Shown: positions 41,376-61,248, numbered from the stretch's first letter. The stretch is 64,000 nt of DNA from an uncultured Alphaproteobacteria bacterium (GCA_944392185.1 CALXVW010000051.1:610-64609); one strand, 5' to 3'. Made by a program: numbers and translations. Notes: generated by a model not told the origin, from the letters alone.

Positions 41376-41820
41376 GTGTTGCCTCCTTTAATGCTCGTTT
41401 GTTATTTAAGCCAAAGAAGTCATAGCCTGATACTTTTATTCCACATATTTCTTTGGCAATCGCCGACAGAGTTTTATAATGGTTGCCCTCAAAAATAAAA
41501 TCATCTGCTTCGTTTATAATAACCTTGTATTGGTGGTTGCGGAAGGTTTTAGTAATTTCTGTCCCCGGATGAAGGTTATATTTGGTTTTGTATACCTTAA
41601 TCATACATTCATCCGGGTTTTCAGCATATTTTTCTAACTTAATTAGGTGTTTGCGTTCAATCTTAAGATTGGCGTTTTCACAGGCGATATAATACCATAA
41701 TGCCCGAAACTGCCGTTTATAAGGACTGTTATGATACCGCGCCCATAGTTCAGCCTGCCTTTTGTGGTTCATACCTTTAAGCTCTTCAGCACTTCTCGGC
41801 AGATAAAACTTCTTTCTCAT
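41368..41820 (-). CDS. DUF2924-family protein (typical upstream partner of large serine recombinases)
   Basis: C-terminal FEGNHYKTLSAIAKEICGIKVSGYDFFGL and N-terminal LWARYHN...RQFRALWYYIA match the DUF2924 pattern. Overlaps the recombinase start by 8 nt. Confidence 0.55.
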   Translation of the reverse strand: MRKKFYLPRSAEELKGMNHKRQAELWARYHNSPYKRQFRALWYYIACENANLKIERKHLIKLEKYAENPDECMIKVYKTKYNLHPGTEITKTFRNHQYKVIINEADDFIFEGNHYKTLSAIAKEICGIKVSGYDFFGLNNKRALKEATHD

Positions 41821-42007
41821 CGGTCAACTCCTTGTTTTTCCATATCTTGTAAGCTCAGTAACGCTTACAGATTGGTAGAAGTCAAGCTAATATATTGAAT
41901 TTAAGTATATTTTTAAAATTTTAAAAATTTTTCAAAAAAAGCGTCAGAAAACACATCGTTGTCAGTACTTTTATTATGTAAAAAAAAATTTTTTAAGGAG
42001 ATTTCAT

Positions 42008-43339
42008 ATGAATGAAAAACTTTTGGTTAATTATGTGGCTATTAACTCAATTTTTGATTATAAGCTTAATCCCAAAACTCACGAAGAAAAGCAGATACAG
42101 CAAATTGCCAGATCTATTGAGCGTTTTGGATTTAATAATCCTATTCTGATTGATGAAAAATCGGAGGTAATTGCTGGTCATGGTCGTTTAGCTGCTGCTA
42201 GACTTTTAAAATTGGATGACGTGCCGGTAATCTGTTTGTCGCATCTCAGCGAGGTAGAAAAGCGAGCTTACCGTATTGCGGATAATAGGTTATCGGAAAA
42301 TGGTCAATGGAATACGGATTTATTGAAGCTGGAATTTTCGGAAATTGAAAAGTTGGCTTTGAACCTTGAAGATGAACTGGATTTGGATATTACCGGATTT
42401 GATTTTAAGGAGATAGATGTTCTTCTGGCTGAAGATAAGCCCAGTGTAAAGGCAGATCAAAAGCTTAATTCTATTCCGTATGTATCGGAAAATGAAATAG
42501 TCAGCCAATATGGAGATATCTGGCTGCTGGGAAAGCATAAAATTATTTGTGGAAACTCGCTGAAAGAGGAAACATATCAGCATTTATTTGAAAACATTAA
42601 GGCCAATATGGTTTTTACTGATCCGCCATTTAATGTGAAAATTCAAGGACATGTTTGCGGCTCTGGTCAAACAAAACATAAAGAGTTTGCTTTTGCCTCT
42701 GGCGAGATGAATGTGGCTGAATTTATTTCGTTTTTGAAAACATCAATGGCGAATATAGCAAAACATTCTGTTGAAAATTCCGTTCATTATATTTGCATGG
42801 ATTGGCGACATATATCCGAGCTGCTTTCCGCTTCTCAAGATATCTACGCTAAAATGCTGAATATGGTGGTTTGGTGTAAGAAAAACGGCGGTATGGGTAG
42901 TTTTTACCGCTCACAGCACGAATTGATTTGCATCTTTCAGAACGGCAAAGGTTCTCATGTTAATAATGTGGAGTTAGGCAAGCATGGCCGCTATCGAACA
43001 AATGTCTGGCATTATGCCGGTGTTAACAGTTTTGGCTCCGAACAGAAAAATCTTAAAATGCATCCGACGGTCAAACCGGTAGAATTAGTCCGCGATGCGA
43101 TTTTGGACGCATCTAAACGGGGCGATATTGTGCTGGATGCGTTTCTCGGCAGCGGAACAACGCTGATTGCGGCTGAAAAGGCCGGACGTGTTTGTTACGG
43201 AATCGAGTATGAGCCATTGTATATTGATACGATTATTCGCCGATATTATGAATTAACCGGAAATTGGGCTATTCATCAAAGTTCGCAAAAATCATATGAG
43301 CAATTATTGCAAGAAAAATTGGAGAAAATCAATGAGTGA
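42008..43339 (+). CDS. ParB-like nuclease domain fused to N6-adenine/N4-cytosine DNA methyltransferase (phage-type)
   Basis: N-terminal ParB-like IAGHGRLAAARLL. C-terminal MTase motifs DPPFN (motif IV) and FLGSGTT (motif I). Confidence 0.7.
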   Translation: MNEKLLVNYVAINSIFDYKLNPKTHEEKQIQQIARSIERFGFNNPILIDEKSEVIAGHGRLAAARLLKLDDVPVICLSHLSEVEKRAYRIADNRLSENGQWNTDLLKLEFSEIEKLALNLEDELDLDITGFDFKEIDVLLAEDKPSVKADQKLNSIPYVSENEIVSQYGDIWLLGKHKIICGNSLKEETYQHLFENIKANMVFTDPPFNVKIQGHVCGSGQTKHKEFAFASGEMNVAEFISFLKTSMANIAKHSVENSVHYICMDWRHISELLSASQDIYAKMLNMVVWCKKNGGMGSFYRSQHELICIFQNGKGSHVNNVELGKHGRYRTNVWHYAGVNSFGSEQKNLKMHPTVKPVELVRDAILDASKRGDIVLDAFLGSGTTLIAAEKAGRVCYGIEYEPLYIDTIIRRYYELTGNWAIHQSSQKSYEQLLQEKLEKINE

Positions 43340-43703
43340 AAGCGGCTATAAAAATCCGCCCAAACATTCGCGATTTCAGAAGGGGTGTTCGGGTAATCCG
43401 GCTGGAAGGCCGAAAGGAAGCAAAAATACGCTCAAACTTCTGGATGCAGTTTTGGAACAGAAAATCAAAATTCAGCAAGAGGGTAAGACCGTCAGCATTA
43501 CCAAAAAGCAGGCAATGCTGATGCAGCTGGTCAATGCTGCGGTAAAAGGCGAAATCAAGGCCATTGCGGCACTTTTCCCATACATGATGCAGCTGGACAT
43601 GAAAGAAGAGCAATCCTTAGAAACAAGCAAATTGTCTCTAAAAGATGAGGAAATTTTACAACAGTTTTTAGAACAAAATAAACAGGAGAATAGAAATGAC
43701 TGA
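43332..43703 (+). CDS. Phage terminase small subunit-like protein
   Basis: MSESGYKNPPKHSRFQKGCSGNPAGRPKGSKN (the GNPxGRPKGS motif is common in phage TerS-like/DUF5681 proteins). Directly upstream of and overlapping the TerL gene. Confidence 0.45.
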   Translation: MSESGYKNPPKHSRFQKGCSGNPAGRPKGSKNTLKLLDAVLEQKIKIQQEGKTVSITKKQAMLMQLVNAAVKGEIKAIAALFPYMMQLDMKEEQSLETSKLSLKDEEILQQFLEQNKQENRND

Positions 43704-45240
43704 TAAAAATTTGGTGAAGAATGCAGTCTTCCGTCAAAGTTTCTCAACCTTTGTACAGAAGTGTTTTTATGAATTAAACCCCTCGGAAAAATTTATAAAT
43801 GGCATGTATATAGATTTATTATGCGATCAAATCCAAAGTATGATTGAAGGTGAGAATCAGAAGTTGATAATCAATCTTCCCCCAAGATATTTAAAATCTG
43901 TCATATGTTCTATAGCTTTGCCTGCATTTATTCTAGGGCATAACCCGTCGGCTAAAATTATGTGCATCAGCTATGGGGAGGATCTGGCTTCCAAATTAGC
44001 TACGGATTGTAGAACCATTATGGAAACAGACTGGTATAAAGAACTTTTCTTTCAGACAAGAATTCGGGGAGATAGGAGATCTAGTATGGATTTTGAAACA
44101 ACCAAGCACGGCGGACGGTTTGCTGTGACAATTTCAGGAGGAGTAACCGGCCGCGGCGCTGATTGGATTATTATAGACGATCCGTTGAAACCGGTTGAGG
44201 CTTTTTCTGATATACAGAGAGAAAAAGTTAATGAACTCTATGGAAATACCGTTAACTCTAGGCTTAATGATAAAAATACAGGGAGAATACTTGTGGTTAT
44301 GCAGCGTTTGCATGCTCATGATTTATCTGGTTTTCTGTTTGAGAACGATCCTGATTTTAAGTCTATCGTCTTGCCGTTGATAGCCGTAAAAGATGAAGAA
44401 TGGCAAATAAAAAATCATATTACCGGAAAAATAGTGATATATAAGCGAAAAAAAGGTGAGCTGCTGCATCCGGAACGCGAAGGCGAAAAAGTTGTAAACA
44501 GTTATCGCAATTCGATGAGCCCTTTTGTATTTTCTGCGCAGTATCAGCAGAATCCAATGCCTATCGGCAGCGGAATGATTAAACAGGAATGGATAACGAC
44601 CTATCAAGAACTGCCAAAGTTGAGTAAAATTATTTTATCATGGGATACAGCGTCTAAAACTACAGAAACGAATGCTTACTCTGCATGTGTGGTGATTGGA
44701 GTTGGAAAAGATCAAAAGTATTACCTGCTTGAAGTGTTTCGCGGCAGACTTGATTTTCCTAGTTTGACAAGAAAGGTTAAGGAACTGTCTGATAAATATG
44801 AAGGTAAAATGTCAGGCAAGATAATAACTTTGGTTGAAAATGCATCTTCCGGGATTTCACTTTGTCAAACTTTGAAAGGTAAGATAACAAATTTAATACC
44901 TGTTTCATGTAAAAGTTCTAAGGAACAGCGTTTTGATATTGTCGCATTAAAAACCGAACAAGGTGAGTTATTGTTTCCAGGACAATATGAACCTTGGTTC
45001 AAAAGTTTTGAAGATGAGTTCTTAACTTTTCCGAGATCTTTATTTAAAGATCAATGTGATGCTTTGAGTCAGGCAATAGGGTATTTTGAAGAGCATAAAC
45101 ATTCTTTACGGCAAGCGGCTGTTGTTGCCATTCCATCGCCGCCCGTGAAAACTGTGTACACTGGAATTATTGGGACATCCAATACAAACAGCAATATTTC
45201 AGCTCGTCCAACAATATTTTTTAATTATAGGCGTTTTTAG
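43696..45240 (+). CDS. Phage terminase large subunit
   Basis: Deviant Walker A region INLPPRYLKSV (the LPPRHGKS-type terminase motif). C-terminal nuclease-domain acidic residues (SWDTASK...). 514 aa. Confidence 0.65.
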   Translation: MTDKNLVKNAVFRQSFSTFVQKCFYELNPSEKFINGMYIDLLCDQIQSMIEGENQKLIINLPPRYLKSVICSIALPAFILGHNPSAKIMCISYGEDLASKLATDCRTIMETDWYKELFFQTRIRGDRRSSMDFETTKHGGRFAVTISGGVTGRGADWIIIDDPLKPVEAFSDIQREKVNELYGNTVNSRLNDKNTGRILVVMQRLHAHDLSGFLFENDPDFKSIVLPLIAVKDEEWQIKNHITGKIVIYKRKKGELLHPEREGEKVVNSYRNSMSPFVFSAQYQQNPMPIGSGMIKQEWITTYQELPKLSKIILSWDTASKTTETNAYSACVVIGVGKDQKYYLLEVFRGRLDFPSLTRKVKELSDKYEGKMSGKIITLVENASSGISLCQTLKGKITNLIPVSCKSSKEQRFDIVALKTEQGELLFPGQYEPWFKSFEDEFLTFPRSLFKDQCDALSQAIGYFEEHKHSLRQAAVVAIPSPPVKTVYTGIIGTSNTNSNISARPTIFFNYRRF

Positions 45241-45316
45241 CTTGAATAATTCTTTTTTATGAGCATTACATATCCACGTCAGATTTTGTCGTCAATGCAT
45301 TATATCGTCAAAAGCA

Positions 45317-46411
45317 ATGAAAAAACGAAACGGGGTAAAAGTAATGTTTTTGAATAAATGGATGTTAGGTCTTAAAAGGGTAGAACAGAAAATTTTGAAG
45401 AGTTATGATAAAAAAAATTGTTCGGAACATATTTCTGCAATAATCCAATCTTATTTAGAAAGGTTGGATTATAAATATCAAAATCCTGATAAAATTATAG
45501 GACTTTCTACAGAAATAAAGACTCTAGACAACAAATTACAAGGTCTAAGAGGTGGAGAAATTATTTTACTCGCCTCTCGTCCCTGTATGGGCAAAACATC
45601 TTTTGCAATGAATCTTTCTTATAAAGTAGCACAATCATTTTTGAAAGAGGATAACATGAACATGGATAATAAATGTGTTCTGTATTTTAGTTCAGAAGCT
45701 CCGTCTTTTACTTTGTGTCAGCTCCAGCGGATTATCGCTGAAAAAATTACCGGTACAAATTGGTTTGATTTACATACATACAAATATGGAAGCAAATCTT
45801 ATGAAGAATTTGCAACGGTAGCAAATATTGGTAAAGAACTAGGAAAATTACCTCTTTATATATGTGATGATTCCAGCCTGTCTTTGGATTCCATAAAAAA
45901 TAAAATAAAAAAAATTAGCGGCTGTTCAAAAATCGGTTTTATTGTTATTGATGAGTTTTTATTATTTTCTTTCAAAAACTCATTACACCCCCAACTGTCC
46001 TATATCACCTTGCAAGGATTAAAGGATATAGCCCAAAAGCTTAATGTTCCCATTTTAGTTCTAGGCAAGTTAAGCAGAAATCTTGAAAGACGCTCCGATA
46101 AACGCCCGCTATTATCTGATGTTGATTCGGCAATTAAACTATCCCCTTATTGTGATAAAATTTTATTTTTGTACCGCGAATCTTACTATTTGACAATGAA
46201 ATACCCAGAAAAAAAGTCAAATGAAACAAAAAACCATTTTGACCATCGAATGAAACGTTGGGAAAAGAAGTATCGTAAAACGGAAAATGAATGTGAGATT
46301 ATAATAGCGAAAAATAAACAAGCATTTACGGGAACGGTAAAAATTTTTTGTAACATGGTAGATGGTATTTTTGACGATATAGAATCATCGGAGGATGATA
46401 TTCCGTTTTAG
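45317..46411 (+). CDS. DnaB-like replicative helicase C-terminal (RecA-fold) domain protein
   Basis: GLRGGEIILLASRPCMGKTSFAMNL Walker A in the DnaB C-domain context. Walker B-like FIVIDEF. Lacks the DnaB N-terminal domain. Confidence 0.55.
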   Translation: MKKRNGVKVMFLNKWMLGLKRVEQKILKSYDKKNCSEHISAIIQSYLERLDYKYQNPDKIIGLSTEIKTLDNKLQGLRGGEIILLASRPCMGKTSFAMNLSYKVAQSFLKEDNMNMDNKCVLYFSSEAPSFTLCQLQRIIAEKITGTNWFDLHTYKYGSKSYEEFATVANIGKELGKLPLYICDDSSLSLDSIKNKIKKISGCSKIGFIVIDEFLLFSFKNSLHPQLSYITLQGLKDIAQKLNVPILVLGKLSRNLERRSDKRPLLSDVDSAIKLSPYCDKILFLYRESYYLTMKYPEKKSNETKNHFDHRMKRWEKKYRKTENECEIIIAKNKQAFTGTVKIFCNMVDGIFDDIESSEDDIPF

Positions 46412-46467
46412 ATAATCTTACTTCCATTAGTATTCAAAACACTAATCCAAAACGAAAGGAACTGACA

Positions 46468-46959
46468 ATGAACAAGGAAATAAAATTAAATCTTAACAAA
46501 CTGTTTTGGTATGTCCTTAGCTGTGAAATTAATAATGACGCCGCTAAATATTATGCACCTTTATTTAATGATAAAGACAAGCAGGAACTTATCAATATTG
46601 TTCTGGAAATTCGACTGTCCGGCCGGAATACATGGAGTGAGAGCAGTAAAGCAAGAATAGCTCCTTATCTATTAAAATTTGCTCCTATTCCATATAAGGG
46701 CAATTCTTGCATTAAACCGGTTACCAATTTAGAAATGCTTGAGGCGGAAGAGTGTTATTCAATGCTAAGCAACTGGAACTTTTTCATCAGTGATGCTTTT
46801 TTCTTATACAAAAAAGATGATATTCGGGCTTTAATTATGGTTGCAGAGGAATTTGGCATTCCTACGCCTAAAATTATCGACCCTAACGACTATTTAACAG
46901 CCAAACAACGAAATACAGTTTTGGCAGAAATGAATGCCCTTATGGCCGAGCAAAGCTGA
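46468..46959 (+). CDS. Hypothetical protein (163 aa)
   Basis: ORF with RBS. No recognisable domain. Confidence 0.3.
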   Translation: MNKEIKLNLNKLFWYVLSCEINNDAAKYYAPLFNDKDKQELINIVLEIRLSGRNTWSESSKARIAPYLLKFAPIPYKGNSCIKPVTNLEMLEAEECYSMLSNWNFFISDAFFLYKKDDIRALIMVAEEFGIPTPKIIDPNDYLTAKQRNTVLAEMNALMAEQS

Positions 46960-47072
46960 GAATCTTATATAACATCTGCCAGAATTTACCTTACAATTTT
47001 CCTTTCTTGCAGGTGATGTACCACGGAAGCCCCAATATAAAATTGGGGCTTCACTTATTTCAGGAGAGAGTA

Positions 47073-47396
47073 ATGACAAAAAAGATAATAAAAGAACTTA
47101 ATGACAATTTTAGAAAAAGCTTTTTAGGTGGACGTGTAATGATAACTCAAAAAGTTCAAATGCTGTCTGCCGAAGCCCAAAGAGAATTATTTGACCGTGT
47201 AAAACAGTTTAATGACTTTACAAAAGAAAACGACCCTTACGGAGAACATGATTTCGGAAGTATCAAATTCCAAAACGACATTTATTTTTGGAAGATTGAT
47301 TATTACGACATTAATTTTTTATATCACAGTCCAGACCCGAGCAACACTTCTATTACAAATAGGGTTTTAACAATCATGCACGCAGATGAATATTAA
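47073..47396 (+). CDS. Hypothetical small protein with conserved NDPYGEHDFG...FWKIDYYD motif
   Basis: ATG preceded by a CAGGAGAGAG RBS (the ORF track starts further upstream at a weaker start). The motif resembles a small protein family common on plasmids and phage islands; exact family uncertain. Confidence 0.35.
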   Translation: MTKKIIKELNDNFRKSFLGGRVMITQKVQMLSAEAQRELFDRVKQFNDFTKENDPYGEHDFGSIKFQNDIYFWKIDYYDINFLYHSPDPSNTSITNRVLTIMHADEY

Positions 47397-47450
47397 CGTC
47401 AAAAATTGGCGACTTTCCATAATATAATTAAAAAATTAAGGAACAAAGCC

Positions 47451-48257
47451 ATGATTTATAAAATTAAAAGCCGAAAACAGCTTATCAATTTGATTAAACA
47501 TTGTGTAATGCTGCGAATATTTACCAACGGAAAAGATGTCTATGCGTGGAATAGCGAATTTACCGATCATCAGCATGCCCGAAAAGTGCTTGGCGGATTA
47601 GACGACTCTTATAATTCTTATACGATAGAAAATAATGGACGTCTGTTACATTGTGTTGTAATCAATCATACTGTATTAGAAAAATTTATTCGGACATGGT
47701 TTCCTGATTGCTGGTATGGTTTTCATATTAAAGAATATGATACGCATGAGGGCATTTGTCTTTTTACAAATGAAAAACCAGAATGGGCATCTCTTCATCA
47801 TGCCTATAATATGCGTATTATAGCATTGGCACAGCCTTATTATAAATCCGAAACTAAGAAACGGACATTCACGCTTTTTACTGAAGATAATGAAATGCCT
47901 TTTCGTTATCCGCATGTTCACGTTTGTGTTGCTACAAAAAATAAGAAGTATTTAGGAGTTCCTCTTCGGTCTCCTTATTGGGCAGAGAAATATAAATCTA
48001 TTTTCAGCATCCGCATAAAAAATCCTAAAGTTACAGAAAAAGAACTCTACACGGCAAATAATTTAATAATTGAAGATGAAGTAGAGTCGGACTGTTTTAA
48101 GAATATGTCCGAGCAAGAAAAAAGCGAACTGCTCGACCTGCTTAATTGTGAAAAATTTAATTTTTGGAGAGGTTACCTCTGTAACATTAAAAACGATGAG
48201 ACTTATAAGGAATATTGGCAAGAAAAAGGCTGTTATTTCGAAACCATAACGCCATAG
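47451..48257 (+). CDS. Hypothetical protein (about 268 aa)
   Basis: The ATG at 47451 follows a TAAGGAAC RBS (the ORF track begins at an upstream TTG). His/Cys/Trp-rich. No family recognised. Confidence 0.3.
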   Translation: MIYKIKSRKQLINLIKHCVMLRIFTNGKDVYAWNSEFTDHQHARKVLGGLDDSYNSYTIENNGRLLHCVVINHTVLEKFIRTWFPDCWYGFHIKEYDTHEGICLFTNEKPEWASLHHAYNMRIIALAQPYYKSETKKRTFTLFTEDNEMPFRYPHVHVCVATKNKKYLGVPLRSPYWAEKYKSIFSIRIKNPKVTEKELYTANNLIIEDEVESDCFKNMSEQEKSELLDLLNCEKFNFWRGYLCNIKNDETYKEYWQEKGCYFETITP

Positions 48258-48320
48258 AACTATAATTATTGCTTCTTGCCACCCAAACAGGTATAAATAT
48301 GGTGTTGAGGAGTTTAAAAT

Positions 48321-48502
48321 ATGTTTTTATCAAAATCTGATTATATGACGGCTTATACCTTGCTTTTTTGACCGGAACATTATCTGACGAAGAAGAAAAA
48401 ATCCTATTTAAAGGTTTGGAAGACTATTGTTACCAAGATACATATGCTATGGTTAAATTGATTGATGTTTTATACGAAAAAAGCAAGGAAGAAACAAATT
48501 AA
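48321..48502 (+). pseudogene. Small ORF (about 60 codons) interrupted by a -1 frameshift at a T6 homopolymer
   Basis: MFLSKSDYMTAYTLLF-TGA, then the -1 frame continues LTGTLSDEEEKILFKGLEDYCYQDTYAMVKLIDVLYEKSKEETN to a TAA at 48500-48502. A single T loss or gain at 48364-48369 would restore one ORF. Confidence 0.2.
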
Positions 48503-48795
48503 TTACAGATATATTTTTTTGATACCATAATTCTAAAATTTTTCCATTTTTATACACTGTCTGATAAGATAATTAACATGATATGAATAAGTTGATATAT
48601 TAAATTTCCTTATGTTATCCGTATGAAAAATATAACTTTTTTCATCAACAGCATTGCTTTTCAATTTAATAATATGTGTATAAAAAAATACTTAACAGCT
48701 TACACAGAGATTTACTACAACCACTACATTTTAAATTATAATTAGTAGGGGATGTTAAAGGTGTTTATAAGTTTGATTGCTTATTATCCGGCATT

Positions 48796-49737
48796 TTATT
48801 TTTTGGGTTTTATAACCTTAACCTCATCGTCCCAAGTATAAAGAAACCAATCCATTTCCAATTTTCCGCCGGCTCGGAATTTAACTGTCAGACTGCCATC
48901 AGGATTTTCGATAAAAGTTTGGTTGGGGTGGAAGATAAAGGTTTTGGCTTCTTCTGCCACTTTCGGACTAAAGAGCCATTCCACGTCAAAAGGCTTTTCA
49001 TGCCAAGCCCCAAAAGATTCTTGGGCATACGCCTCCAAATTAAAATCATCGTTAGTAAAAGTTTCCGGCAAAATGTCGGCTTCTAAAATATGCGATAAAG
49101 AAAAATTGTGTGCTTTCCCGGAATCCCAGCCGTCGCTATGCTTAGCAACTAAATAATGTGCCCTCTGTCCATATAAAAAACCGTACGGAATCAGGTTATA
49201 GTCAAAAATTCTGCCGTCCATTTTGCTTTTATATTTTAATCTGACCTGATGGCAGCTTAAAATTGCCTGCCGAATGGTATCTATAATTTGGGCATCTATT
49301 TTTATTTTTGGACCGGGACGCAAAACCAGCCCTTCCGCTTTTATTAACTCCTCCGCATCAACCTCGACCCTGCGTTTTTGTTCCGGCTTCATCAAGTTTT
49401 TCAGCTTAAGCTCAACCTTTGCCAATAAAGCGGCTTTATTGTCCAAACTATTTTGCTTAAGGTAACTTATTGCCGTTTGCAGGGCTGAAATTTCTTCCGG
49501 AGAAAACGCAATTAAGGAATTTAAAGTCCGTTGAGGAATTCGCCAGCGTTTTCTTTTTTCTCCAGTATAGACTTCTTCCATTTGTGGAAAATAGCGAAGC
49601 AAAGCGTCTCGCATTCTTTCTGCGGTACGTTGCGAAACATCAAAATCGTGACAAATATCGGCAAGAGAAATCCCGTCTGAACTTTCCTGCATTTTCATTG
49701 CCAAGTCAAACAGGTCTAACATCTTGCCGTAATTCAT
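48796..49737 (-). CDS. WYL-domain transcriptional regulator (HTH + WYL, BrxR/YafY-like)
   Basis: N-terminal HTH (GISLADICHDFDVSQRTAERMRDAL). Central WYL-type domain and C-terminal extension (WYL-like motif VAKHSDGWDS). 313 aa. Confidence 0.55.
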   Translation of the reverse strand: MNYGKMLDLFDLAMKMQESSDGISLADICHDFDVSQRTAERMRDALLRYFPQMEEVYTGEKRKRWRIPQRTLNSLIAFSPEEISALQTAISYLKQNSLDNKAALLAKVELKLKNLMKPEQKRRVEVDAEELIKAEGLVLRPGPKIKIDAQIIDTIRQAILSCHQVRLKYKSKMDGRIFDYNLIPYGFLYGQRAHYLVAKHSDGWDSGKAHNFSLSHILEADILPETFTNDDFNLEAYAQESFGAWHEKPFDVEWLFSPKVAEEAKTFIFHPNQTFIENPDGSLTVKFRAGGKLEMDWFLYTWDDEVKVIKPKK

Positions 49738-49747
49738 AACCGTATTC

Positions 49748-50413
49748 CTACCTTTCCGCGGGTTTTACTTTTATCATTAAAAGTTTAAAATTATTTAAAT
49801 ACTCGCACCAATGACATTCATATTCGTTTGTTGACACTTTTTTCTTATATTTATCATTTTTTGGTGAAAAAACTTTTGGCCCTGCCTCAATATTTTTTGC
49901 AAGGTAAAATTTTTCATCAATAGTTTCTTTCTTTTCTCCCTTTTCTCTTTCCCAATAAACCTTGTCATTAGTCAGAAAAAGGCAAAAATTGTTCATCTTT
50001 TTTGATGTTATGTTACGGATTCCCTCTAATCTTTCTATATCCTGAACAAACAATAATCTTCCAAAATCTTGGGCGGAGTGATTTTTTAATGTCAAATTAA
50101 TACCGTACCGTGTAATTTCTTTTGCTGTAGTCTTATATTTTAATTCGATAAACGAGATTTCATCAGGCGTATCAACATAAATATCTATATATTTTATACG
50201 AGTACCCTCTTTCTCACGATAAGGATATTCCAAAATGATTTTTGCCGTTTCGCCTAAAATTTCTTTTAGTTTCCACGCCAAGCTAAACTGAAAATCAGCC
50301 TCAAGCGTAAATATTGCATTTTCCGCTTTTAATCTTTTAATTGCTTCACTTATTGCAGTTGAAATGACATCCGCCATAATTACCTCCTTTATTTTTTTGC
50401 AGAACATAATCAA
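49748..50413 (-). CDS. PD-(D/E)xK-like nuclease-fold protein (221 aa), co-operonic with WYL regulator
   Basis: YIDIYVDTPDEISFIELKYK gives an Asp strand followed by ExK about 12 residues later. The gene stops 10 bp before the WYL gene start. Confidence 0.35.
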   Translation of the reverse strand: MIMFCKKIKEVIMADVISTAISEAIKRLKAENAIFTLEADFQFSLAWKLKEILGETAKIILEYPYREKEGTRIKYIDIYVDTPDEISFIELKYKTTAKEITRYGINLTLKNHSAQDFGRLLFVQDIERLEGIRNITSKKMNNFCLFLTNDKVYWEREKGEKKETIDEKFYLAKNIEAGPKVFSPKNDKYKKKVSTNEYECHWCEYLNNFKLLMIKVKPAER

Positions 50414-50919
50414 AATACCTTACATATCCGACAGAATTTGACGCTAATGGTATAAAAAAACAGTCGCCGGGATCTTGGCGACTGGGAGTTTACAACTGCA
50501 TAAAGACAGCATGATGCTTTTAGCAAAATGCCTGAACATAACATCATCTCCCAGTCATTAGACTAGGAGAAGTGTTTTTTGATTTCGGTCTGTCTTCTCT
50601 AATTCAGACCGCTTTATGAGGGATTGTAAAGTCCCAGCTCACTTTTGAGCCGATTTCATATTAACAACGTGTAATAAAATGTCAAAAGAAATGATTAAAT
50701 TTATGCTGAGGAAATATTATTTCTTTTAAGAAATATGATGTATGTTTATTATATTTCTTACAGAAAACCTCAAGTTCACTTAGTGGTGAAGATAAAAGTA
50801 TTCCATGACATCCTTTTGCGCTAATGCGTATAGACAAACCATAGGTTTCCAGCAGATTAATTTCGTCTGTTTACGGGGAATATTTACTGTTGAATAAGAT
50901 ACTGAATATAAATTGATAC

Positions 50920-52221
50920 TTAAGCTACTTTATCTAAGGTTTTTACATCCAAAATGTTATCCTCAATAATAGCGTCTTTGATGTCGTAGTTTTTATCAAG
51001 CATAGCAATTAAACAGCGACCGATGTGATAACTTAAATTAACTGGTACTGCATTACCGATTTGTTTGTATTGAGCCCCCATAGATCCTTTAAATTCCCAA
51101 GTATCTGGAAAAGATTGAATCCTTGCATATTCTCTAATAGTCAATGGCCGAGTTTCTTCTGGGTGACATCGTTCTGTTTGTTTTTGTGCCGGTGCACAGG
51201 TTAGAGTTAGGCTGGGTTCATCCCAGGAAAGACGTCTTGCCATACCTGTTTTTCCTCCAGAAAGGTAAAAACTTCCTTTCATATATTCTTTTTGTAACCC
51301 TATCGGAAGATCTCGCCAGTATCCTCCCTCTGGAACCTGTGAGAGAATCTCAGCTTTTCTTTTAGGGTAGCTTTGTCCTTCAGATTTTGGGCAATTTTTT
51401 AATGCTGATCTTAAAGAAACGGTATAATTTTTTTCTTTGGGAAAAATGAAAGGTATATCTAAGTCTTTTCTAATTCCAATTATAATTAATCGCTCTCTTT
51501 TTTGAGGGACATCCAAATATTGTGCTCTAAGTACTTTATATCTTACATTATAACCAAGTTCCGTTAAAGTATTTACCATAGTTTGAAGCGTTCTGCCGTT
51601 ATCGTGTTTTAATAATCCTTTGACGTTCTCACCAACAGCAATTTTGGGCATGGTTTCTTTAACACAACGAGCAAATTCAAAAAATAAGGTTCCTCTTGTA
51701 TCTTCGAATCCCATACTTTTTCCAGCATAGCTGAAAGCTTGACATGGAAAACCGGCCTGAACGATGTCGACCTTATTTTTCCAAGATGTAAAATCTACAT
51801 TATGGACATCAGCATGAATGATGTTTGTACCTTTAGGGAAATTATGTTTTAATGTTTCTATGCAGTTTTTATCAAATTCATTTAACAATACATGGTGAAT
51901 ACCAGCATTTTCAAAGCCTAAAGCTGTTCCTCCGGCTCCAGCAAATAATTCTATTGCAGTATAAGGGGATGGTGTTTTGTTTTTTAATACTTTAAATTCT
52001 GCTTCAGATTTGTCGTTTAATTTTTTTAGAAGTGCTTTTACTTCATCTTCATCAAAAATTCTATGGTTTTTATCCGATCTTTCTGCTTTTATAAGACCTT
52101 TTTTTTCCCATCGTCTGATTGTATCAATTGAAAGATTAAGTTTTTGGCTAACTTCATGGATAGATAACTGCATTGTAACACTCCTTGATTCAATAAAAGA
52201 ACCATAAAATAACCCTTGCAT
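50920..52221 (-). CDS. DNA (cytosine-5)-methyltransferase with N-terminal MerR-like HTH
   Basis: C5-MTase motifs I (ELFAGAGG), IV (GFPCQAFSYAGK) and VI (ENVKGLL). N-terminal LSIHEVSQKLNLSIDTIRRWEKKGLI (MerR-type HTH). Confidence 0.8.
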   Translation of the reverse strand: MQGLFYGSFIESRSVTMQLSIHEVSQKLNLSIDTIRRWEKKGLIKAERSDKNHRIFDEDEVKALLKKLNDKSEAEFKVLKNKTPSPYTAIELFAGAGGTALGFENAGIHHVLLNEFDKNCIETLKHNFPKGTNIIHADVHNVDFTSWKNKVDIVQAGFPCQAFSYAGKSMGFEDTRGTLFFEFARCVKETMPKIAVGENVKGLLKHDNGRTLQTMVNTLTELGYNVRYKVLRAQYLDVPQKRERLIIIGIRKDLDIPFIFPKEKNYTVSLRSALKNCPKSEGQSYPKRKAEILSQVPEGGYWRDLPIGLQKEYMKGSFYLSGGKTGMARRLSWDEPSLTLTCAPAQKQTERCHPEETRPLTIREYARIQSFPDTWEFKGSMGAQYKQIGNAVPVNLSYHIGRCLIAMLDKNYDIKDAIIEDNILDVKTLDKVA

Positions 52222-52266
52222 ATATGCAAGGGTTATTAGAATAGCTGTAGATAAGTTAAAATATCG

Positions 52267-52980
52267 TTATTGATTATATTTTTCTTCTATTTCTGTAGAT
52301 AGCTGCCTAATTACATTATTTAATAATTCGGTTCCATCGACCTCTGTTGCAAGAGACGCAATTTCATTTATTAATTCATCATAAAAGCTGGGATCCCCGG
52401 TTAAATGGTGCCAAAAATCTTTGCCGACATATACTGGATGCGAACGATCAATTGTCCGATACATTTGTGATAAATCATCACTTTTTCCATAAAAAACACC
52501 AACAATACAATCAATATCAGCATTAAATTCGCGTAAACCATTGGTGCGGGCTATACGACGAATAGATTCAAAATGATTTTTAATGGTTGTAATATCATCT
52601 TTATTAATGGTATTTGGGCCAGCTTTTATTTGGCAATATTTACGTCGGCCATCAAGTTGATCGACAAATTCAATGTCTATTCCAGGAGTTGTGGATGCAA
52701 AACCGCTAAGTACATCTTTACAGAAGGCTTGCATTTGTGTACCGAACGTAGTGTTTATTGAAGTACCTAAAACCCTAGGATATACTAAAGCCTTTGCTAT
52801 GCTAGAAGCGTCACAATTACCAAAAGCAAAGTTTGCTAGATATTTTTCTAAAAAAGGATTCGGTTGAAAAGCCGATAATTTACCTAATTTTTCTGTATTC
52901 CTTTTATGATTATCAACAATTTTCTCTCTAAAAAAATCCTTTGCTTTTGCTAGTATTTCTCTTTTTTCTGCCTCAGTCAT
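52267..52980 (-). CDS. Candidate Type II restriction endonuclease paired with the C5-MTase
   Basis: Immediately upstream of and co-directional with the MTase. IDIEFVD...KYCQIK gives a degenerate PD-(D/E)xK-like arrangement. Assignment by context. Confidence 0.35.
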   Translation of the reverse strand: MTEAEKREILAKAKDFFREKIVDNHKRNTEKLGKLSAFQPNPFLEKYLANFAFGNCDASSIAKALVYPRVLGTSINTTFGTQMQAFCKDVLSGFASTTPGIDIEFVDQLDGRRKYCQIKAGPNTINKDDITTIKNHFESIRRIARTNGLREFNADIDCIVGVFYGKSDDLSQMYRTIDRSHPVYVGKDFWHHLTGDPSFYDELINEIASLATEVDGTELLNNVIRQLSTEIEEKYNQ

Positions 52981-53132
52981 AGCTATTTCCTATGTTGTTT
53001 TTACTAATATATTGAAATTATACTGGCGATTATTGAAAACACAATCATTAAATTAGTTAAAAGAAAAATTCTTGACTCCATAGCAAGCATGCAATATAAA
53101 AAATATCAGCAAGCATAAAAAGAGGTATAAAT

Positions 53133-54137
53133 ATGAATGTAAATCAAATTAAAGGTGGTAAGGTTAGAGCAAAAAAATTATCATCAGAACAACGTAGAGA
53201 GATAGCAATAAAAGCGGCACAATCAAGATGGCAAAAAAGTGCTACTAATGAAAGCAATTTTCCTAAGGCTCTATATACTGGAGTGCTTCCTATTGGCGAT
53301 GTAGAAATAGATTGTGCTGTATTAGATGATGGTCGGAGAGTTTTAACCGCAACATCTATATTTAATGCTTTTGATCGAACTAGAAAAGGTATGAATTCAA
53401 GGCTCGAAATTGAAGGAACAAAAATACCTCCATTTTTGGCCGCAAAAAACTTAGAAAAATATATAACTTCAGAAGTTATTGAGAAGGCCACCCCAATCAC
53501 ATATATTGATGGGTCTATAGAAAAAACAGGTTATTTGGCCAGTATATTACCTAAAATGTGTGAAGTTTATCTCAATGCACGTAGAGACAACCAATTAACA
53601 GCTTCACAAAAGAAACTTGCAGAGAAATCTGAAATTCTATTAATGGCTTTTGCTCAAGTTGGTATAGATGCATTAATTGACGAAGCAACAGGTTACCAAT
53701 ATGACAGAAAACACGATGCATTAAGGATATTGTTAGCAAAATATATTGAAGAAGGTTTACAAAAATGGATTAAAACATTTCCGGATGCTTTTTTTGCTGA
53801 ACTAGATCGTCTTTATAATAACGGAATCACTATTTCTCGTAAAAGGCCGATGTATTATGGAAACTTTATAAATAAATATGTGTATGAGCCAATAGAACAC
53901 GGATATATAAAAGAAGAACTTAATAAGAAGAATATAAAAAAAGATGGAAAAAGAATTGCTCAGTTTCATAGGTGGTTAACTGAAGAGGGAAGAAATATCC
54001 TTATTTTACAGATTGGTAGGGTTTCAGCTCTTATGGAGATTAGTAAAAATATAGAGGCATTTAAAAGAAAAGTTGAAAAACAAAAGGAAATCTCTGTAGC
54101 TCCGTATCTATTTGAAGAGATGAATGAAATTGAATAA
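53133..54137 (+). CDS. P63C-domain protein (phage-type) immediately upstream of Gabija
   Basis: N-terminal GGKVRAKKLSSEQRREIAIKAAQSRWQK and central IDEATGYQYDRKHDALRILLAKYI...WIKTFPDAFF match the P63C-domain pattern. Stops 31 bp before gajA. Confidence 0.45.
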   Translation: MNVNQIKGGKVRAKKLSSEQRREIAIKAAQSRWQKSATNESNFPKALYTGVLPIGDVEIDCAVLDDGRRVLTATSIFNAFDRTRKGMNSRLEIEGTKIPPFLAAKNLEKYITSEVIEKATPITYIDGSIEKTGYLASILPKMCEVYLNARRDNQLTASQKKLAEKSEILLMAFAQVGIDALIDEATGYQYDRKHDALRILLAKYIEEGLQKWIKTFPDAFFAELDRLYNNGITISRKRPMYYGNFINKYVYEPIEHGYIKEELNKKNIKKDGKRIAQFHRWLTEEGRNILILQIGRVSALMEISKNIEAFKRKVEKQKEISVAPYLFEEMNEIE

Positions 54138-54167
54138 GTTTCATTCTCTATTACTAGGAGTTAATTT

Positions 54168-55868
54168 ATGAAAATATCAAAATTGACTATTGAAAATTTT
54201 AGAAATTTGTCAGGAATATCAACGATTTTCTCTGATGAAATTTGTTCAATTGTTGGTGAAAACAATATTGGAAAATCAAATTTATTATATGCTATTACAT
54301 CTGTATTAACGGGTAAGAAATTTGATGAAATAGATTTTTATGATAAAAGTAAGCCACTGGTTATTTCTTTTACATTAAAACTCTCGGATGAAGAATTAGG
54401 TGCTTTTGATGATTATTTTGATCCAGACGACCATCATTTAGTTAATATTATCGCAGAGCAAGCAACTCCTGATGATTATATTAACTATAGACACAAAGAA
54501 AGTGGAAACTCTATTTCACGAGCAGATATAATTAATAATTTAAATGTGATTGTATATGATTCTTTAAGAAATCCTAAAACAGAAATAACTTTTGAAAAGA
54601 GTAAAGGTGTAGGAGCATTTTTAAATTATATTATAAGAAGGTATTTATCTCAAAATGCTTCTAAATTATATCTTGTAGAAGAAAATATAAACTCATTAAA
54701 TGATTATATTATAGGGATTCTTGAAAAACTTACGTGTTTTAATAAGTTTAATATAAAATCAGATGTATCTAATAATGCAGATGAATTATTACCCAAAATT
54801 TTTGATCTATACGAAGCAGGGAACATTCCTTTAGAGTGCTCAGGATATGGAGTACAGTTTAATATACTTATTTTATTATCTATTTTAGAAAAAATTTTAA
54901 GATATTCTGAAAAAAAAGGATTGCCTGATAATAAAACATTTTCCTGTATTATTACTTTTGATGAACCTGAGATACATCTAAGTCCTTTTTTACAAAGAAG
55001 CATATTGTACAATATCAAAAAGATTGCAAAAGGAGAAGATGATGATTTTAATGCAATTATAAAAGAACTATTTGATATTGATCATTTTTCTGCTCAAATA
55101 TTGCTGACAACCCATTCCAGAGAAATTGTCGAAAATAACTATAAACAAATCATTCGTTTATATAAAGATGAATCCAAAGTAAAAGCTGTATGTGGTGCCG
55201 ATATTTCAATAACATCGGAAGAAAAACATTGGTATAAAGCACTAACCTACGTTAAAGAGGCTTTGTTTGCAAAAAAAGTTATATTAGTGGAAGGTGATAG
55301 TGAACAGGGCGCCTTGTATAGCTTTGCAAAAACATTAAAAATCAATTTGGATGATTATGGTGTTGCTATCGTAAAGGCATCTGGCGCTAATAGTATTTTT
55401 CCATTAGCTTATTTGTTTGAGAAATTTAATATACAACCTATACTTATTTTTGATAAAGATAAATATGATGAATATCAAAGAGGTAATAAAGATCAAGATA
55501 TTACACATTTTAAAGATTATATGTTTGTTACGCAAACTAAATGTTTTGATAGTGAAATAGTTTTTAATTTATATAATGATGACGGAATTGAAGTTCTAAA
55601 GGTTATTCAGAATGATTATAGGTGTAATATAATTCAAAGAAGTTCTGTTGCTAAACTTAATAAGCAGTACGCACTAAATCCTCCATTAGAAGAACAAGAT
55701 TACCAATTCGCTTCATACCAATATCCAGATGAAATTTTAAAATATATGTATGTTTCATTTTTTCAAAATAATAAAACTGTTGTATTTGGAGAGTGTATTG
55801 GCGAGCGTTGTCCCGAAGTGTGTATTCCAGAATGTTACAAAAACGCTATTCTTAAGGCAGTCGAATAA
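54168..55868 (+). CDS. gajA: Gabija GajA (OLD-family ATPase + Toprim nuclease)
   Basis: N-terminal ISKLTIENFRNLSGIS...IVGENNIGKSNLLYAI (AAA_15/OLD ABC-type ATPase). C-terminal Toprim VILVEGDSEQ. 566 aa, overlapping the start of a UvrD-like gene. Confidence 0.75.
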   Translation: MKISKLTIENFRNLSGISTIFSDEICSIVGENNIGKSNLLYAITSVLTGKKFDEIDFYDKSKPLVISFTLKLSDEELGAFDDYFDPDDHHLVNIIAEQATPDDYINYRHKESGNSISRADIINNLNVIVYDSLRNPKTEITFEKSKGVGAFLNYIIRRYLSQNASKLYLVEENINSLNDYIIGILEKLTCFNKFNIKSDVSNNADELLPKIFDLYEAGNIPLECSGYGVQFNILILLSILEKILRYSEKKGLPDNKTFSCIITFDEPEIHLSPFLQRSILYNIKKIAKGEDDDFNAIIKELFDIDHFSAQILLTTHSREIVENNYKQIIRLYKDESKVKAVCGADISITSEEKHWYKALTYVKEALFAKKVILVEGDSEQGALYSFAKTLKINLDDYGVAIVKASGANSIFPLAYLFEKFNIQPILIFDKDKYDEYQRGNKDQDITHFKDYMFVTQTKCFDSEIVFNLYNDDGIEVLKVIQNDYRCNIIQRSSVAKLNKQYALNPPLEEQDYQFASYQYPDEILKYMYVSFFQNNKTVVFGECIGERCPEVCIPECYKNAILKAVE

Positions 55869-57661
55869 TGTCTTGTATTGAAGATAAGTTAAAAGAAATG
55901 CATCAAAATGATAGGGAGCAACTTGATATCATATTTTCTCAAGAAAAACGAATCCTTGTTGAAGCATCAGCAGGGTGCGGTAAAACAAAGACATTAGTTA
56001 GTAAAATAGCTTATTTGCTTAGTACAAATAAGATTCCTGTAAATAAAAAAATTTTGATATTAACATTTGGTGTAAATGCTGCTTACAAAATAAAAAAAGA
56101 AGTTTTTGAAAATGTACCTAAGTTAATAAGAAATATTCACGATTTAGAAGATAAAATCATAGTTACTAATTTTCATGGCTTTTCGCGTAGAATTCTAAGT
56201 CGATATGGGTATTTATTAAATGATAATCTTTTGCAATTAAACCAATTTTCTATAGATGATGATGCAGAAACCGATGAATTAACACAGTTAGACATAGGGC
56301 TACTTATGTCAGAAGCTGATTTTTTAAGTACTTATTCTCAATGTATCAAAGATAATAATTATGGTTACTTGAATGAAAATTTTGAGAAGTATATTGCTTT
56401 AATAAAGTATAAGTTTCTGCCAAATAATCATATTACATATAATGCCATATTATTACTTACATTGAAACTTTTAAGTCAATATAGTGGAATATTACAGTTT
56501 TATCAAAAACTATTTCCTTATATAATAATTGATGAATTTCAAGATACTGGTAGTATTAGCTGGGCAATACTTAGACAACTGATAACAGAAAAAACTTCTC
56601 TTCTGTTTATGGGAGATCCTTTACAAAGAATTTATGGTTTTATAGGTGCTGTTCCAGGTTTAATGGAAAAAGCATGTGCAAAATATTCTATGAATATATT
56701 TAAAATAACAACAAATTATCGGTTTAAAGATAATCCGAATATGCTGCAATTAGATAAAAACATTAGAGAAAATAGTAAAGGCAATTCTATAATTATCACT
56801 CAAAATGCGGTTGTTCCTTGTAATTTGTATTATACACAGCACGATGAGGCAGTCTATATAAAATCAAAATTAATTTATTTATTAAATCATTATCAAGGAT
56901 GCAAAATAGCAATTTTAATTCAATCCCGAACAAAAAATTTAAATTATATCTTGGATTATTTAGCTAGTAACTCAATTGATTATTTTAATGGATTATTCAA
57001 CGAAGAAAGTTATTCTTATAAAAAATTTCATAAAGATGTATTGGAAATATTTATAGATAGTTATAACAAAAGTAAATTAAAAACTATTCGCAAATCTTTT
57101 TTATCTCAAATTTACGAAAAAGTTTCTGCTTTTTATGATGCTCACATGACAGATGAAATATCATCTTTAATAAAATTGTTAAAAGTGTTTTTTTCTGATA
57201 TCACAAATAAGATTTATCTTAATAATGAAGAAAAATATCAGCTAATAATTGATGTATTATCAAATAATTCCTTAAAACAATCTATGGAACTATTGGAAGA
57301 AAAAATTGTAGTTACAACGGTGCATGGTGCAAAAGGATTGGAATGGGATTATATTTTACTTCCTGATATGGAGCGAAATAGTTTTCCTAATTGGCAATCT
57401 TTATGTAGTGTATGTCCGGAAATAGCAAACCATGATGATTGTAATAGATGTTTAAACAAAAGTAGCAATATGGATCAAAAGTTTTATTGTCGCTACATTG
57501 ATATTCTTAGCCTTTTTTATGTGGCGGTTACAAGAGCTAGAAAACAAGTATTTTTTTCTGCTAGTTTACAAACGTTGAATAATCTAAAATATCCAAGAAC
57601 AAAAATTAGCTGTTTATTATCTCTTCCTGGTATTGACTTAAAAGAAGATAAAGAAATCTGA
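55868..57661 (+). CDS. gajB: Gabija GajB (UvrD-like helicase)
   Basis: Motif I ASAGCGKTKT, motif II IIDEFQDTG, motif V-like VTTVHGAKGLEWDYILL. The start overlaps the gajA stop (taATG). Confidence 0.75.
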   Translation: MSCIEDKLKEMHQNDREQLDIIFSQEKRILVEASAGCGKTKTLVSKIAYLLSTNKIPVNKKILILTFGVNAAYKIKKEVFENVPKLIRNIHDLEDKIIVTNFHGFSRRILSRYGYLLNDNLLQLNQFSIDDDAETDELTQLDIGLLMSEADFLSTYSQCIKDNNYGYLNENFEKYIALIKYKFLPNNHITYNAILLLTLKLLSQYSGILQFYQKLFPYIIIDEFQDTGSISWAILRQLITEKTSLLFMGDPLQRIYGFIGAVPGLMEKACAKYSMNIFKITTNYRFKDNPNMLQLDKNIRENSKGNSIIITQNAVVPCNLYYTQHDEAVYIKSKLIYLLNHYQGCKIAILIQSRTKNLNYILDYLASNSIDYFNGLFNEESYSYKKFHKDVLEIFIDSYNKSKLKTIRKSFLSQIYEKVSAFYDAHMTDEISSLIKLLKVFFSDITNKIYLNNEEKYQLIIDVLSNNSLKQSMELLEEKIVVTTVHGAKGLEWDYILLPDMERNSFPNWQSLCSVCPEIANHDDCNRCLNKSSNMDQKFYCRYIDILSLFYVAVTRARKQVFFSASLQTLNNLKYPRTKISCLLSLPGIDLKEDKEI

Positions 57662-57687
57662 TCTTTGCTCTATGTTGAATTATATTT

Positions 57688-59448: not shown

Positions 59449-59711
59449 TTTTGTTTCCTAATTTTTTAGATAATTAATAATATATATTGTTACTATTGTA
59501 GTTTGCAAAAAGCAATCACTAATTGTAAATTTTCCCTGTATTTAATTTTAAATTCCCTGATAATTTTGGGAAGGATGTTGGGATAAGCTAAGCAATTCAA
59601 GGTAAACATGATGGTGCGGAGGAGAAAAACGTGGTGAAATTCCCTGTAGATTCCCTGTTATTTGGCTTGAGCAATGTGAAGCTTTAGTATGCTTAATACC
59701 GTTGAGATTTA

Positions 59712-61239: not shown

Positions 61240-61248
61240 ATCTTTTTC

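Follow-up and report, generated by a model that had tools for sequence, protein, structure and literature searches.

A putative mobile cassette combining a structured small RNA, a DriD-like regulator and exchangeable nuclease-like genes in an uncultured alphaproteobacterium

We analyzed a 64,000-nucleotide (nt) stretch of DNA from an uncultured Alphaproteobacteria bacterium (GCA_944392185.1 CALXVW010000051.1:610-64609; hereafter the window), and describe here a locus at positions 48796-50919 in which a gene for a structured small RNA (sRNA) is followed by a promoter with the layout known from the Caulobacter regulator DriD, a gene for a nuclease-like effector, and a gene for a DriD-like transcription regulator. 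This architecture is conserved at other loci that carry different effector genes in the same place, the fold of the RNA is backed by covariation, and the regulator is homologous to DriD from end to end. We infer activation by single-stranded DNA (ssDNA), nuclease activity of the effector, a role in defense and a role for the sRNA in the cassette. Our favored reading, which we hold with about even confidence, is that the locus is a mobile cassette that acts as an ssDNA-triggered, self-amplifying nuclease unit.

The regulator gene (49737..48796, minus strand) encodes a WYL protein of 313 amino acids (aa) and lies 10 bp downstream of a small open reading frame (ORF) that, read from a TTG codon, spans 50413..49748 on the same strand and encodes 221 aa. 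The two are co-oriented and are conserved together in relatives, and the 10-bp gap given in the original prediction, which had drawn attention to this pair, is confirmed (49748 / 49737). We consider it more likely that the small protein begins at the ATG at 50377, giving a 209-aa product (49748..50377, minus strand), since an AGGAGG precedes this ATG and the homologs are all 206-216 aa long and begin MADVIS. Upstream lies a non-coding stretch of 506 bp counted from the TTG, or 542 bp counted from the ATG, and close relatives of the surrounding island (85-95% protein identity) share this spacer. The stretch had been put forward as one structured region preceding the gene pair; it is present, but only its promoter-proximal ~270 nt (about 50726..50454) belong to the module, and the remaining ~190-230 nt travel with the neighboring restriction-modification (R-M) genes. 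The latter part is absent from L023, the GTDB representative and an uncultured gut alphaproteobacterium, in which other genes replace the R-M system. Counted from the -35 element of the sRNA promoter, homology to L023 sets in ~40 nt further upstream; the unit thus comprises the sRNA, the small gene and the WYL gene.

The 313-aa protein (48796..49737, minus strand) matches the Pfam WYL and WCX families and aligns with DriD in the order winged helix-turn-helix (wHTH), three-helix bundle, WYL, WCX. A phmmer comparison with the Caulobacter DriD chains 8tp8/8tpk and 9pfq gave E = 1e-47; the alignment covers residues 2-312 of the regulator and, in the tagged DriD chain 9pfq_Q, residues 6-311, at moderate identity. 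DriD, with this E value over 311 residues, is the closest characterized relative, and the earlier label of a BrxR-like regulator is therefore given up. Three ligand residues of DriD could be mapped with confidence: Y168 and R176 align with identical residues, and R178 aligns with F. DriD is an ssDNA-activated transcriptional activator whose box takes the place of a -35 element and keeps a constant distance to the -10 element (PMC9186387, PMC10853764, PMC13004042), and the motif CGXC-N7-GXCG is present in 68 of 69 alphaproteobacterial driD promoters (PMC10853764). It regulates its own gene, to whose promoter it binds, and raises expression of didA and of the nuclease gene bapE about 100-fold (PMC9186387); it binds single-stranded RNA (ssRNA) weakly, and its contacts with ssDNA are not base-specific (PMC9186387, PMC10853764). 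We also considered an RNA ligand for the WYL domain and rejected it because of this weak ssRNA binding and the lack of base-specific ssDNA contacts; the likeness of UAGUCUAAU to a published oligonucleotide is in our view a coincidence.

A DriD-type box, CGTCAAATTCTGTCG (50429..50443, minus strand), fits CGXC-N7-GXCG in the form CGTC-N7-GTCG and stands 10 nt downstream of the T-run that ends the sRNA gene. Exactly 11 nt further on is a -10 element, TATTTT (50412..50417, minus strand), with no -35 hexamer. The core pattern has two exact matches in the 64 kb, against 0.44 expected by chance, and CGTCAAATTCTGTCG is one of them. The same arrangement of box (CGWC-N7-GWCG), 11 nt and TATnnT without a -35 element is found, judged from sequence, in 16/16 of the distinct cassette variants listed and in a diverged locus, L107; every variant carries a DriD box. 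A different reading, in which the right half of the palindrome would serve as -35 element for a -10 element located 17 nt downstream, was given up in favor of box, 11 nt and TATnnT, which hold in all variants. The cassette promoter is thus probably an activator-dependent promoter of the DriD type, and the regulator, being DriD-like, is probably an activator; we read the direction of regulation only from the similarity to DriD and the missing -35 element. The second box in the window, CGTCAGATTTTGTCG (45277..45291, plus strand), is followed by 11 nt and TATCGT and lies in a 76-nt gap upstream of a DnaB-like helicase gene (45317..46411). It is a candidate additional target of the regulator, and replication genes of the island may be controlled by the same protein.

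Upstream of the box we identified a sigma-70-type promoter on the minus strand (50658..50685) that consists of TTGACA, a 16-nt spacer and TAATAT, with a TG upstream of the -10 element (score 10/12 plus the TG extension). Its layout recurs in other variants as TTGACA-16-TAATAT (L109), TTGACA-16-TATTGT (L103), TTGACT-16-TATTGT (L027) and TTGCAA-16-TAATAT (L107). The promoter is ~200 nt upstream of an intrinsic terminator (50454..50484, minus strand; CAGUCGCC, an 8-nt loop, GGCGACUG and U7), and the structured sRNA gene, backed by covariance model, fold and covariation, runs from about the transcription start to the end of the T-run (50454..50656, minus strand). The terminator contains an 8-bp hairpin that had been seen in the sequence at the outset (CAGTCGCC-N8-GGCGACTG, 50484..50461, followed by T7) and that a terminator scan of the minus strand scores as an intrinsic terminator. 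Among homologs the terminator stems are kept and the loop sequences vary; in L107 the entire stem is exchanged for CCCACC/GGGUGG, with six pairs changed on both sides. By its sequence features, the sRNA is an independent gene with its own, presumably constitutive, promoter and its own terminator, and is part of the cassette frame. A structured leader or non-coding RNA for the small protein had been proposed: a conserved structured RNA does lie upstream, but as a separate gene that is kept when the effector is swapped, and not as a leader specific to that protein.

The 199-nt predicted transcript folds at -77.4 kcal/mol, compared with -44.5 +/- 4.3 kcal/mol for shuffled sequences (z = -7.6; 0/200 shuffles as stable). 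A covariance model of the RNA (R1) scores 243.6 bits on the minus strand of the window versus 32 bits antisense. We built one alignment of 12 distinct variants (A7) and a larger one of 15 homologous RNAs that includes two diverged sequences (A11), and used the latter for the covariance analysis across homologous loci that had been suggested as a check. In A11, 94.6% of cells in paired positions are paired, versus 32-46% when the partners are slid, and 19/53 pairs have changed on both sides, versus 2-6 in the slid controls; on each of five measures, none of 500 shuffles reached the observed value. G.U pairs occur in the sense orientation only. With RNAalifold, compensatory changes in a long-range helix were already seen among five close variants.

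The resulting model, all on the minus strand, has a hairpin at the 5' end, the long-range helices PK2 and PK1, a set of three inner hairpins and the terminator. PK1 pairs CAUAAAG (50612..50618) with CUUUAUG (50505..50499) and exists in five versions, each complementary over 7 bp: CAUAAAG/CUUUAUG in the window, CAACAUA/UAUGUUG in L001, CAGUAUA/UAUACUG in L103 and L027, CACAACA/UGUUGUG in L113, and CAUCUAU/AUAGAUG in L107; five of its seven pairs have changes on both sides. Since the RNA itself contains both arms, and the operons have no further copy of either 7-mer, PK1 is an intramolecular helix by sequence. PK2 pairs UUUACAA (50624..50630), which is also the loop of a local hairpin GGGA...UCCC, with UUGUAAA (50495..50489), and is represented by UUGCAA/UUGCAA in L021 and others and by CUCACA/UGUGAG in L107. 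An inner hairpin that had been noticed earlier as a further small hairpin is likewise present (TCTCCTAGTC-TAAT-GACTGGGAGA, 50570..50547); this element, HP4, forms in the minimum-free-energy fold, and its U.G pair is C-G in 5/14 sequences.

The RNA also contains two competing pairings. HP4 joins segment 1 (UCUCCUAGUC) to segment 2 (GACUGGGAGA) across the loop UAAU, and a 9-bp inverted repeat, found at the positions first reported (GACTGGGAG, 50556..50548, and CTCCCAGTC, 50488..50480), provides the other pairing. Segment 3 (CUCCCAGUC, 50480..50488, minus strand) is the 3' arm of this repeat; it has 5 nt, CAGUC, in common with the terminator's 5' arm. Segments 1 (CUCCUAGUC) and 3 are near-identical 9-mers, each complementary to segment 2 (GACUGGGAG), and the 3' arm of the terminator (GGCGACUG) resembles segment 2. 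The minimum-free-energy fold has the 1:2 pairing and the terminator, and enforcing the 2:3 pairing (the 9-bp repeat, and also the closing stem of an Xcc1-like fold, see below) costs 17 kcal/mol, so termination would be the default. Such a 1-2-3-4 layout is present in the window-type RNAs, within whose close set the segments are invariant, and, with compensating changes, in the diverged L107 RNA. The L107 segments read GCUCCUC, GGGGAGU and GCUCCCC; where segment 2 has G for U, segments 1 and 3 both have C for A, and all three pairings are kept.

The L107 homolog is shortened to ~150 nt (2627..2779, minus strand; own TTGCAA-16-TAATAT promoter) and scores 37.6 bits, with E about 1e-7 or lower depending on the number of bases searched. 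It is divergent from a DriD-box promoter (box near 2823..2841, plus strand) that drives genes for a double-AAA ATPase and a WYL protein. A gene for a 78-aa helix-turn-helix (HTH) protein starts 30 nt downstream of its terminator, which leaves no room for a promoter and makes the RNA the sole possible leader of that gene; this arrangement, in a single sequence, hints at real attenuator behavior. Two candidate leader peptides were rejected: a 45-aa ORF (50547..50410) is not conserved and meets a stop after two codons in L103, and a 35-codon ORF of L103 is absent from the window. We also rejected a type III toxin-antitoxin (ToxIN-like) arrangement, as the RNA reads as a single-copy unit without tandem repeats.

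In an Rfam scan of the region no family reached its threshold. The closest resemblance, from a permissive scan, was to sRNA-Xcc1 (RF02221), whose scores of 32.5 bits (window) and 30.6 bits (L103) are both below the gathering threshold of 53; the diverged homologs in L113, L118, L027 and L107 gave no match. The invariant Xcc1 closing stem is uninformative, and the inner hairpin proposed by the Xcc1 fold (hairpin a) is without covariation and is broken in 3/48 cells (two pairs); covariation instead backs a different inner hairpin and the long-range helices. With a sub-threshold score and an unsupported consensus fold, we rejected membership in sRNA-Xcc1 and speak of a resemblance only. A blastn search of the Rfam Xcc1 consensus against plasmids gave one partial, uninformative match. 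The sRNA itself had no blastn match in phage and plasmid collections, and in viral contigs the RNA pattern had no match and only one WYL relative was found. We conclude that this RNA family, with its strong covariation, is previously undescribed and missing from Rfam. Elsewhere in the window, sub-threshold Rfam matches of 25-30 bits (Trp and Thr leader models and small sRNA families) at 29684..29806 and 36317..36493 are probably terminator-like hairpins.

Further cassettes were found through homologs of the WYL protein and through a metagenome scan for the conserved RNA pattern. Both routes led to the same RNA, followed by differing genes and then by a WYL gene of 58-98% identity. In place of the 209-aa gene, the effectors are PDDEXK_4 proteins (L103, L113, L027), a family of 174-200 aa beginning MALNGIEEF (L109, L111, L112 and L115, the last with an extra Fic/Doc gene), or a pair of genes encoding 85 and 283 aa (L118, L125). 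Since the RNA is kept with differing effectors, and the 209-aa gene also occurs without the RNA, the RNA belongs to the cassette frame and its regulator, and the nuclease-like gene is, as read from these sequences, exchangeable cargo. A profile-profile comparison of the 209-aa family with the other effectors was negative, and we rejected kinship between them. In the cassette type of L118 and L125, the WYL gene is immediately preceded by a 418-nt gap with two more DriD-type boxes (L125 3635..3797); a regulator of this type has its own box promoter besides the sRNA-proximal one.

The 209-aa effector belongs to a large unnamed family, mostly of 200-220 aa, in which grouping at 90% identity gives 1,567 clusters and grouping at 50% about 3,760 representatives. 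Across 23 sequences with identities down to 29%, residues E26, D65, E78 and K80 (E…D…ExK) are invariant. An AlphaFold2 model (predicted local distance difference test score, pLDDT, 81; predicted template modeling score, pTM, 0.82) shows an alpha-beta-beta-beta-alpha-beta core with helices at 26-41 and 103-118 and strands at 46-53, 62-69, 73-82 and 130-136; E26 is on helix 2, D65 on strand 2 and E78-x-K80 on strand 3. Structural comparison with the PDB returned weak matches to MGME1, R2 endonuclease, MunI, HincII, Bax1, Hjc, OkrAI and McrC, and most of the top-ranked ones are PD-(D/E)xK nucleases. Together, signature and fold core agree with the earlier suggestion of a PD-(D/E)xK-like protein, and this fold is likely, a call in which we have fairly good confidence; profile searches came back empty, so membership in DUF4263/Shedu, also raised at the time, is unsupported. 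A neighbor census of 103 loci identified no fixed partner for the family, a candidate arrangement that we rejected. Some members (P0244-P0247) are tandem fusions of two family copies (412-480 aa), which would fit a dimeric protein. In L012 (5600..7946), a diversity-generating retroelement has a member of the 209-aa family between its bAvd and reverse-transcriptase genes, and distant members (34-46% identity) occur in WYL operons with GIY-YIG nucleases (L005 3923..6648, L010 3202..5473). These last operons are divergent from a pair of genes for an AAA ATPase and a PAD_porph (agmatine-deiminase-like) protein, and look like another recurring WYL-linked gene set.

We propose the following mechanism. 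The near-consensus sigma-70 promoter would produce a compact ~200-nt RNA that ends at the strong terminator, and the DriD box, in lieu of a -35 element, would drive expression of the 209-aa protein and the DriD-like regulator. By homology with Caulobacter DriD, ssDNA arising from DNA damage, or from a replicating phage or plasmid, would bind the WYL domain and free the wHTH domains to bind the box and recruit RNA polymerase. The regulator would thereby raise its own level and that of the nuclease-like effector, the output of the circuit, which may be a damage- or infection-triggered nuclease comparable to DriD-activated bapE. The sRNA is probably an insulator or attenuator: its terminator would insulate the activator-dependent promoter from the strong promoter upstream, and its 1-2-3-4 layout would allow regulated or basal read-through, with 2:3 pairing preventing termination and read-through supplying the first regulator molecules. 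A more speculative extension, to which we give low credence, is that the ~200-nt RNA represents a new class of bistable regulatory RNAs working with DriD-type ssDNA sensors, for instance as an infection-signal sensor or timer that switches from terminator to anti-terminator. Such an RNA could provide a second, RNA-level input gating interchangeable suicide or defense nucleases, and its variable 7-bp helix could limit cross-talk between co-resident cassettes.

Several observations weigh against this proposal. CapW and BrxR share the domain order of the regulator, are repressors and also sense ssDNA. The fold matches of the effector are weak (E >= 4e-3, TM <= 0.29), and its family is unnamed by Pfam, PADLOC, NCBIfam, PHROGs and PDB sequence search. 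In the 103-locus census this family had no constant neighbor outside islands and was mostly stand-alone, often among housekeeping genes; copies with 67% identity (L016, L024) are solitary chromosomal genes with neither sRNA nor WYL gene. As for the RNA, its anti-terminator fold is the less stable one by 17 kcal/mol, no conserved leader peptide or ligand pocket is evident in it, and the three-way covariation comes from the single diverged L107 sequence, whose RNA points away from the WYL operon and cannot lead it.

A first alternative, unlikely in our view, is that the sRNA is a trans-acting, antitoxin-like brake of a type I-like kind (compare SymR/SymE): made constitutively, it would block translation of the effector encoded downstream, whichever that is, for example by pairing of the CU-rich CUUCUCCU with the Shine-Dalgarno sequence, until WYL induction out-titrates it. 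Such a brake would fit a strong, presumably constitutive sigma-70-type sRNA promoter beside an activator-dependent effector promoter, and effectors that are nuclease-like and probably toxic. In integron cassettes of Xanthomonas, the weakly similar sRNA-Xcc1 precedes symE, a DNA-damage toxin gene (bioRxiv 10.1101/2025.06.18.660453), and the effector ribosome-binding sites (AGGAGAAAAG; L109, L115, L118) are complementary to CUUCUCCU over 6-7 nt. However, this complementarity is at most a generic Shine-Dalgarno match (5-7 nt), CUUCUCCU is buried in a 10-bp hairpin of the stable fold, the effector leaders differ between variants, and no extended or covarying target site of the sRNA was found in any operon.

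The sRNA might instead have no part in control of the cassette and be an island-level immunity or copy-control RNA (compare P4 CI, P1 C4 and sRNA-Xcc1), linked to the WYL gene only through a recombination-prone island boundary, a prospect that we rate as quite unlikely. It draws on the sub-threshold match to sRNA-Xcc1, a family of integrons, phages and genomic islands (PMC12189769; bioRxiv 10.1101/2020.03.17.996009), on the terminase-like, DnaB-like and recombinase genes of the island, on the second DriD box upstream of the DnaB-like gene, and on the five sequence versions of PK1, as seen with specificity determinants of antisense RNAs. Chance linkage, however, would not predict how close the RNA stays to the DriD box: within 7-16 nt wherever the two are co-directional, and within about 40 nt in L107, where they are divergent. 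Both PK1 arms lie inside the RNA, and a search of operons and upstream regions for an external target of the variable 7-mers found none, a candidate that we accordingly rejected; the Xcc1-type hairpin is without covariation support, and the Xcc1 match is missing from the four loci named above.

Equally doubtful is the view that the WYL protein is a repressor of the BrxR/CapW type, with the palindrome as an operator at which it would keep the promoter shut until released by ssDNA: the identical wHTH-WYL-WCX order occurs in CapW and BrxR, both found in defense islands, CapW senses ssDNA (PMC11662680, PMC9122601), PADLOC WYL models match the regulator, and some variants have a right box half (TTGACG or CTGACG) that is similar to a -35 hexamer, but the best solved relatives are DriD chains (E = 1e-47), a PDB sequence search with the WYL protein returned no BrxR or CapW chain at E <= 0.01, the host is an alphaproteobacterium, and the box fits the DriD consensus at the -35 position, a fixed 11 nt from the -10 element, as in DriD-activated promoters (PMC13004042).

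The ssDNA-triggered cassette that we favor resides on a ~21-kb integrative island of this gut alphaproteobacterium, adjoining tRNA-Ser (38640..38730), within window positions 38640..61240. The island encodes a large serine recombinase (41375..39726) with a DUF2924 protein, a terminase-large-like protein (43696..45240), a ParB-N6 methylase, a DUF5681 protein, the DnaB-like helicase, a DUF3768 protein and a P63C protein. The defense context initially proposed for the WYL gene is borne out by its surroundings: the defense block consists of a type II R-M system, the cassette, the P63C protein, Gabija (GajA and GajB, 54168..57661) and GmrSD (59448..57688), and SIR2-pAgo stands in place of Gabija in L001 and L019. 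First in gene order is an EcoO109I-like restriction endonuclease (52980..52267, minus strand), followed by a MerR-fused C5 methyltransferase (52221..50920, minus strand) directly upstream of the non-coding stretch. Between these two genes, overlapping the methylase start, is a perfect 13-bp palindrome with a 4-nt loop, AATAACCCTTGCATATATGCAAGGGTTATT (52208..52237, minus strand), which may serve the MerR domain as its operator and not be a terminator. On the other side of the cassette, a 44-aa ORF (48368..48502, plus strand) is an apparent remnant of a 476-aa DUF2779 (Cas4-like) gene that is intact and convergent with the WYL gene in L001-L004 and lies beside WYL homologs in L005 and L124.

It is now recognized that ssDNA-sensing WYL regulators act as switches for DNA-damage responses and phage defense. 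The known cases are chromosomal master regulators (DriD, PafBC, DdaA) or repressors that head a defined system (BrxR, CapW). The locus described here would be a portable version, in which a DriD-like gene, a box promoter and a structured RNA form a fixed frame for swapped nuclease-like genes. If this is true, a large unnamed family (about 3,760 clusters at 50% identity) would become candidate nucleases, and further candidate effectors could be identified by their position in the frame. It would also add an RNA family with strong covariation that is absent from Rfam, and a testable case of RNA-level and activator-level control acting on one toxic operon.

Compared with sRNA-Xcc1, the cassette RNA has an ~85-nt stretch (50556..50472) that threads onto the Xcc1 model, with a GC-rich closing stem (GACUGGGAG/CUCCCAGUC) and two inner hairpins, and both RNAs are located on mobile elements, where they precede toxin-like genes of the same orientation (symE, an ORF6N protein). 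The cassette RNA differs in its length of ~200 nt, in a 5' domain that pairs into the 3' domain, and in that folding it in the manner of Xcc1 costs 17 kcal/mol of stability relative to its native fold. Type I loci such as SymE/SymR join a DNA-damage-inducible toxic protein to an adjacent constitutive small RNA, as the cassette probably does. The cassette RNA, in contrast, is not antisense to the effector gene and has no extended complementarity to the mRNA, and the cassette effectors are nuclease-like proteins of 170-390 aa, not small membrane peptides or AbrB-fold proteins. With attenuators and riboswitches the cassette shares a four-segment layout, in which 1 resembles 3, 2 resembles 4, the 1:2 and 3:4 pairings give the terminator and 2:3 would block it, as well as a position directly upstream of the regulated genes, and in L107 as the sole leader of the next gene. 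Unlike them, it has a separate activator-dependent promoter between terminator and genes, and its RNA has no conserved leader peptide, T-box features, known ligand-binding core or Rfam cis-regulatory match.

Among regulators, BrxR (BREX), CapW (CBASS) and DdaA (Moraxellaceae) are likewise wHTH-WYL-WCX proteins encoded beside defense genes on islands, with ssDNA or DNA damage as the signal for CapW and DdaA. The activator DdaA couples anti-phage genes to the response to DNA damage (PMC12392091). BrxR and CapW, by contrast, are repressors encoded at the 5' end of their systems, whereas the cassette regulator gene is the 3' member of a two-gene operon; the window contains neither BREX nor CBASS genes, and no sRNA partner came up in the papers on these three regulators that we consulted. 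The closest parallel is DriD with its regulon (didA, bapE, driD, recA, recJ, dnaG). The cassette regulator is set apart from DriD by its location on a mobile island, in an operon whose 3' end it forms after an exchangeable effector gene, and by the structured sRNA gene that abuts the box; the DriD papers that we consulted describe nothing of the kind, and a term search of PMC9186387 gave no sRNA or noncoding RNA. The two proteins share the order wHTH, three-helix bundle, WYL, then WCX in an end-to-end alignment, and the output of both includes a nuclease gene: bapE in Caulobacter crescentus, and a gene for a nuclease-like 209-aa protein here.

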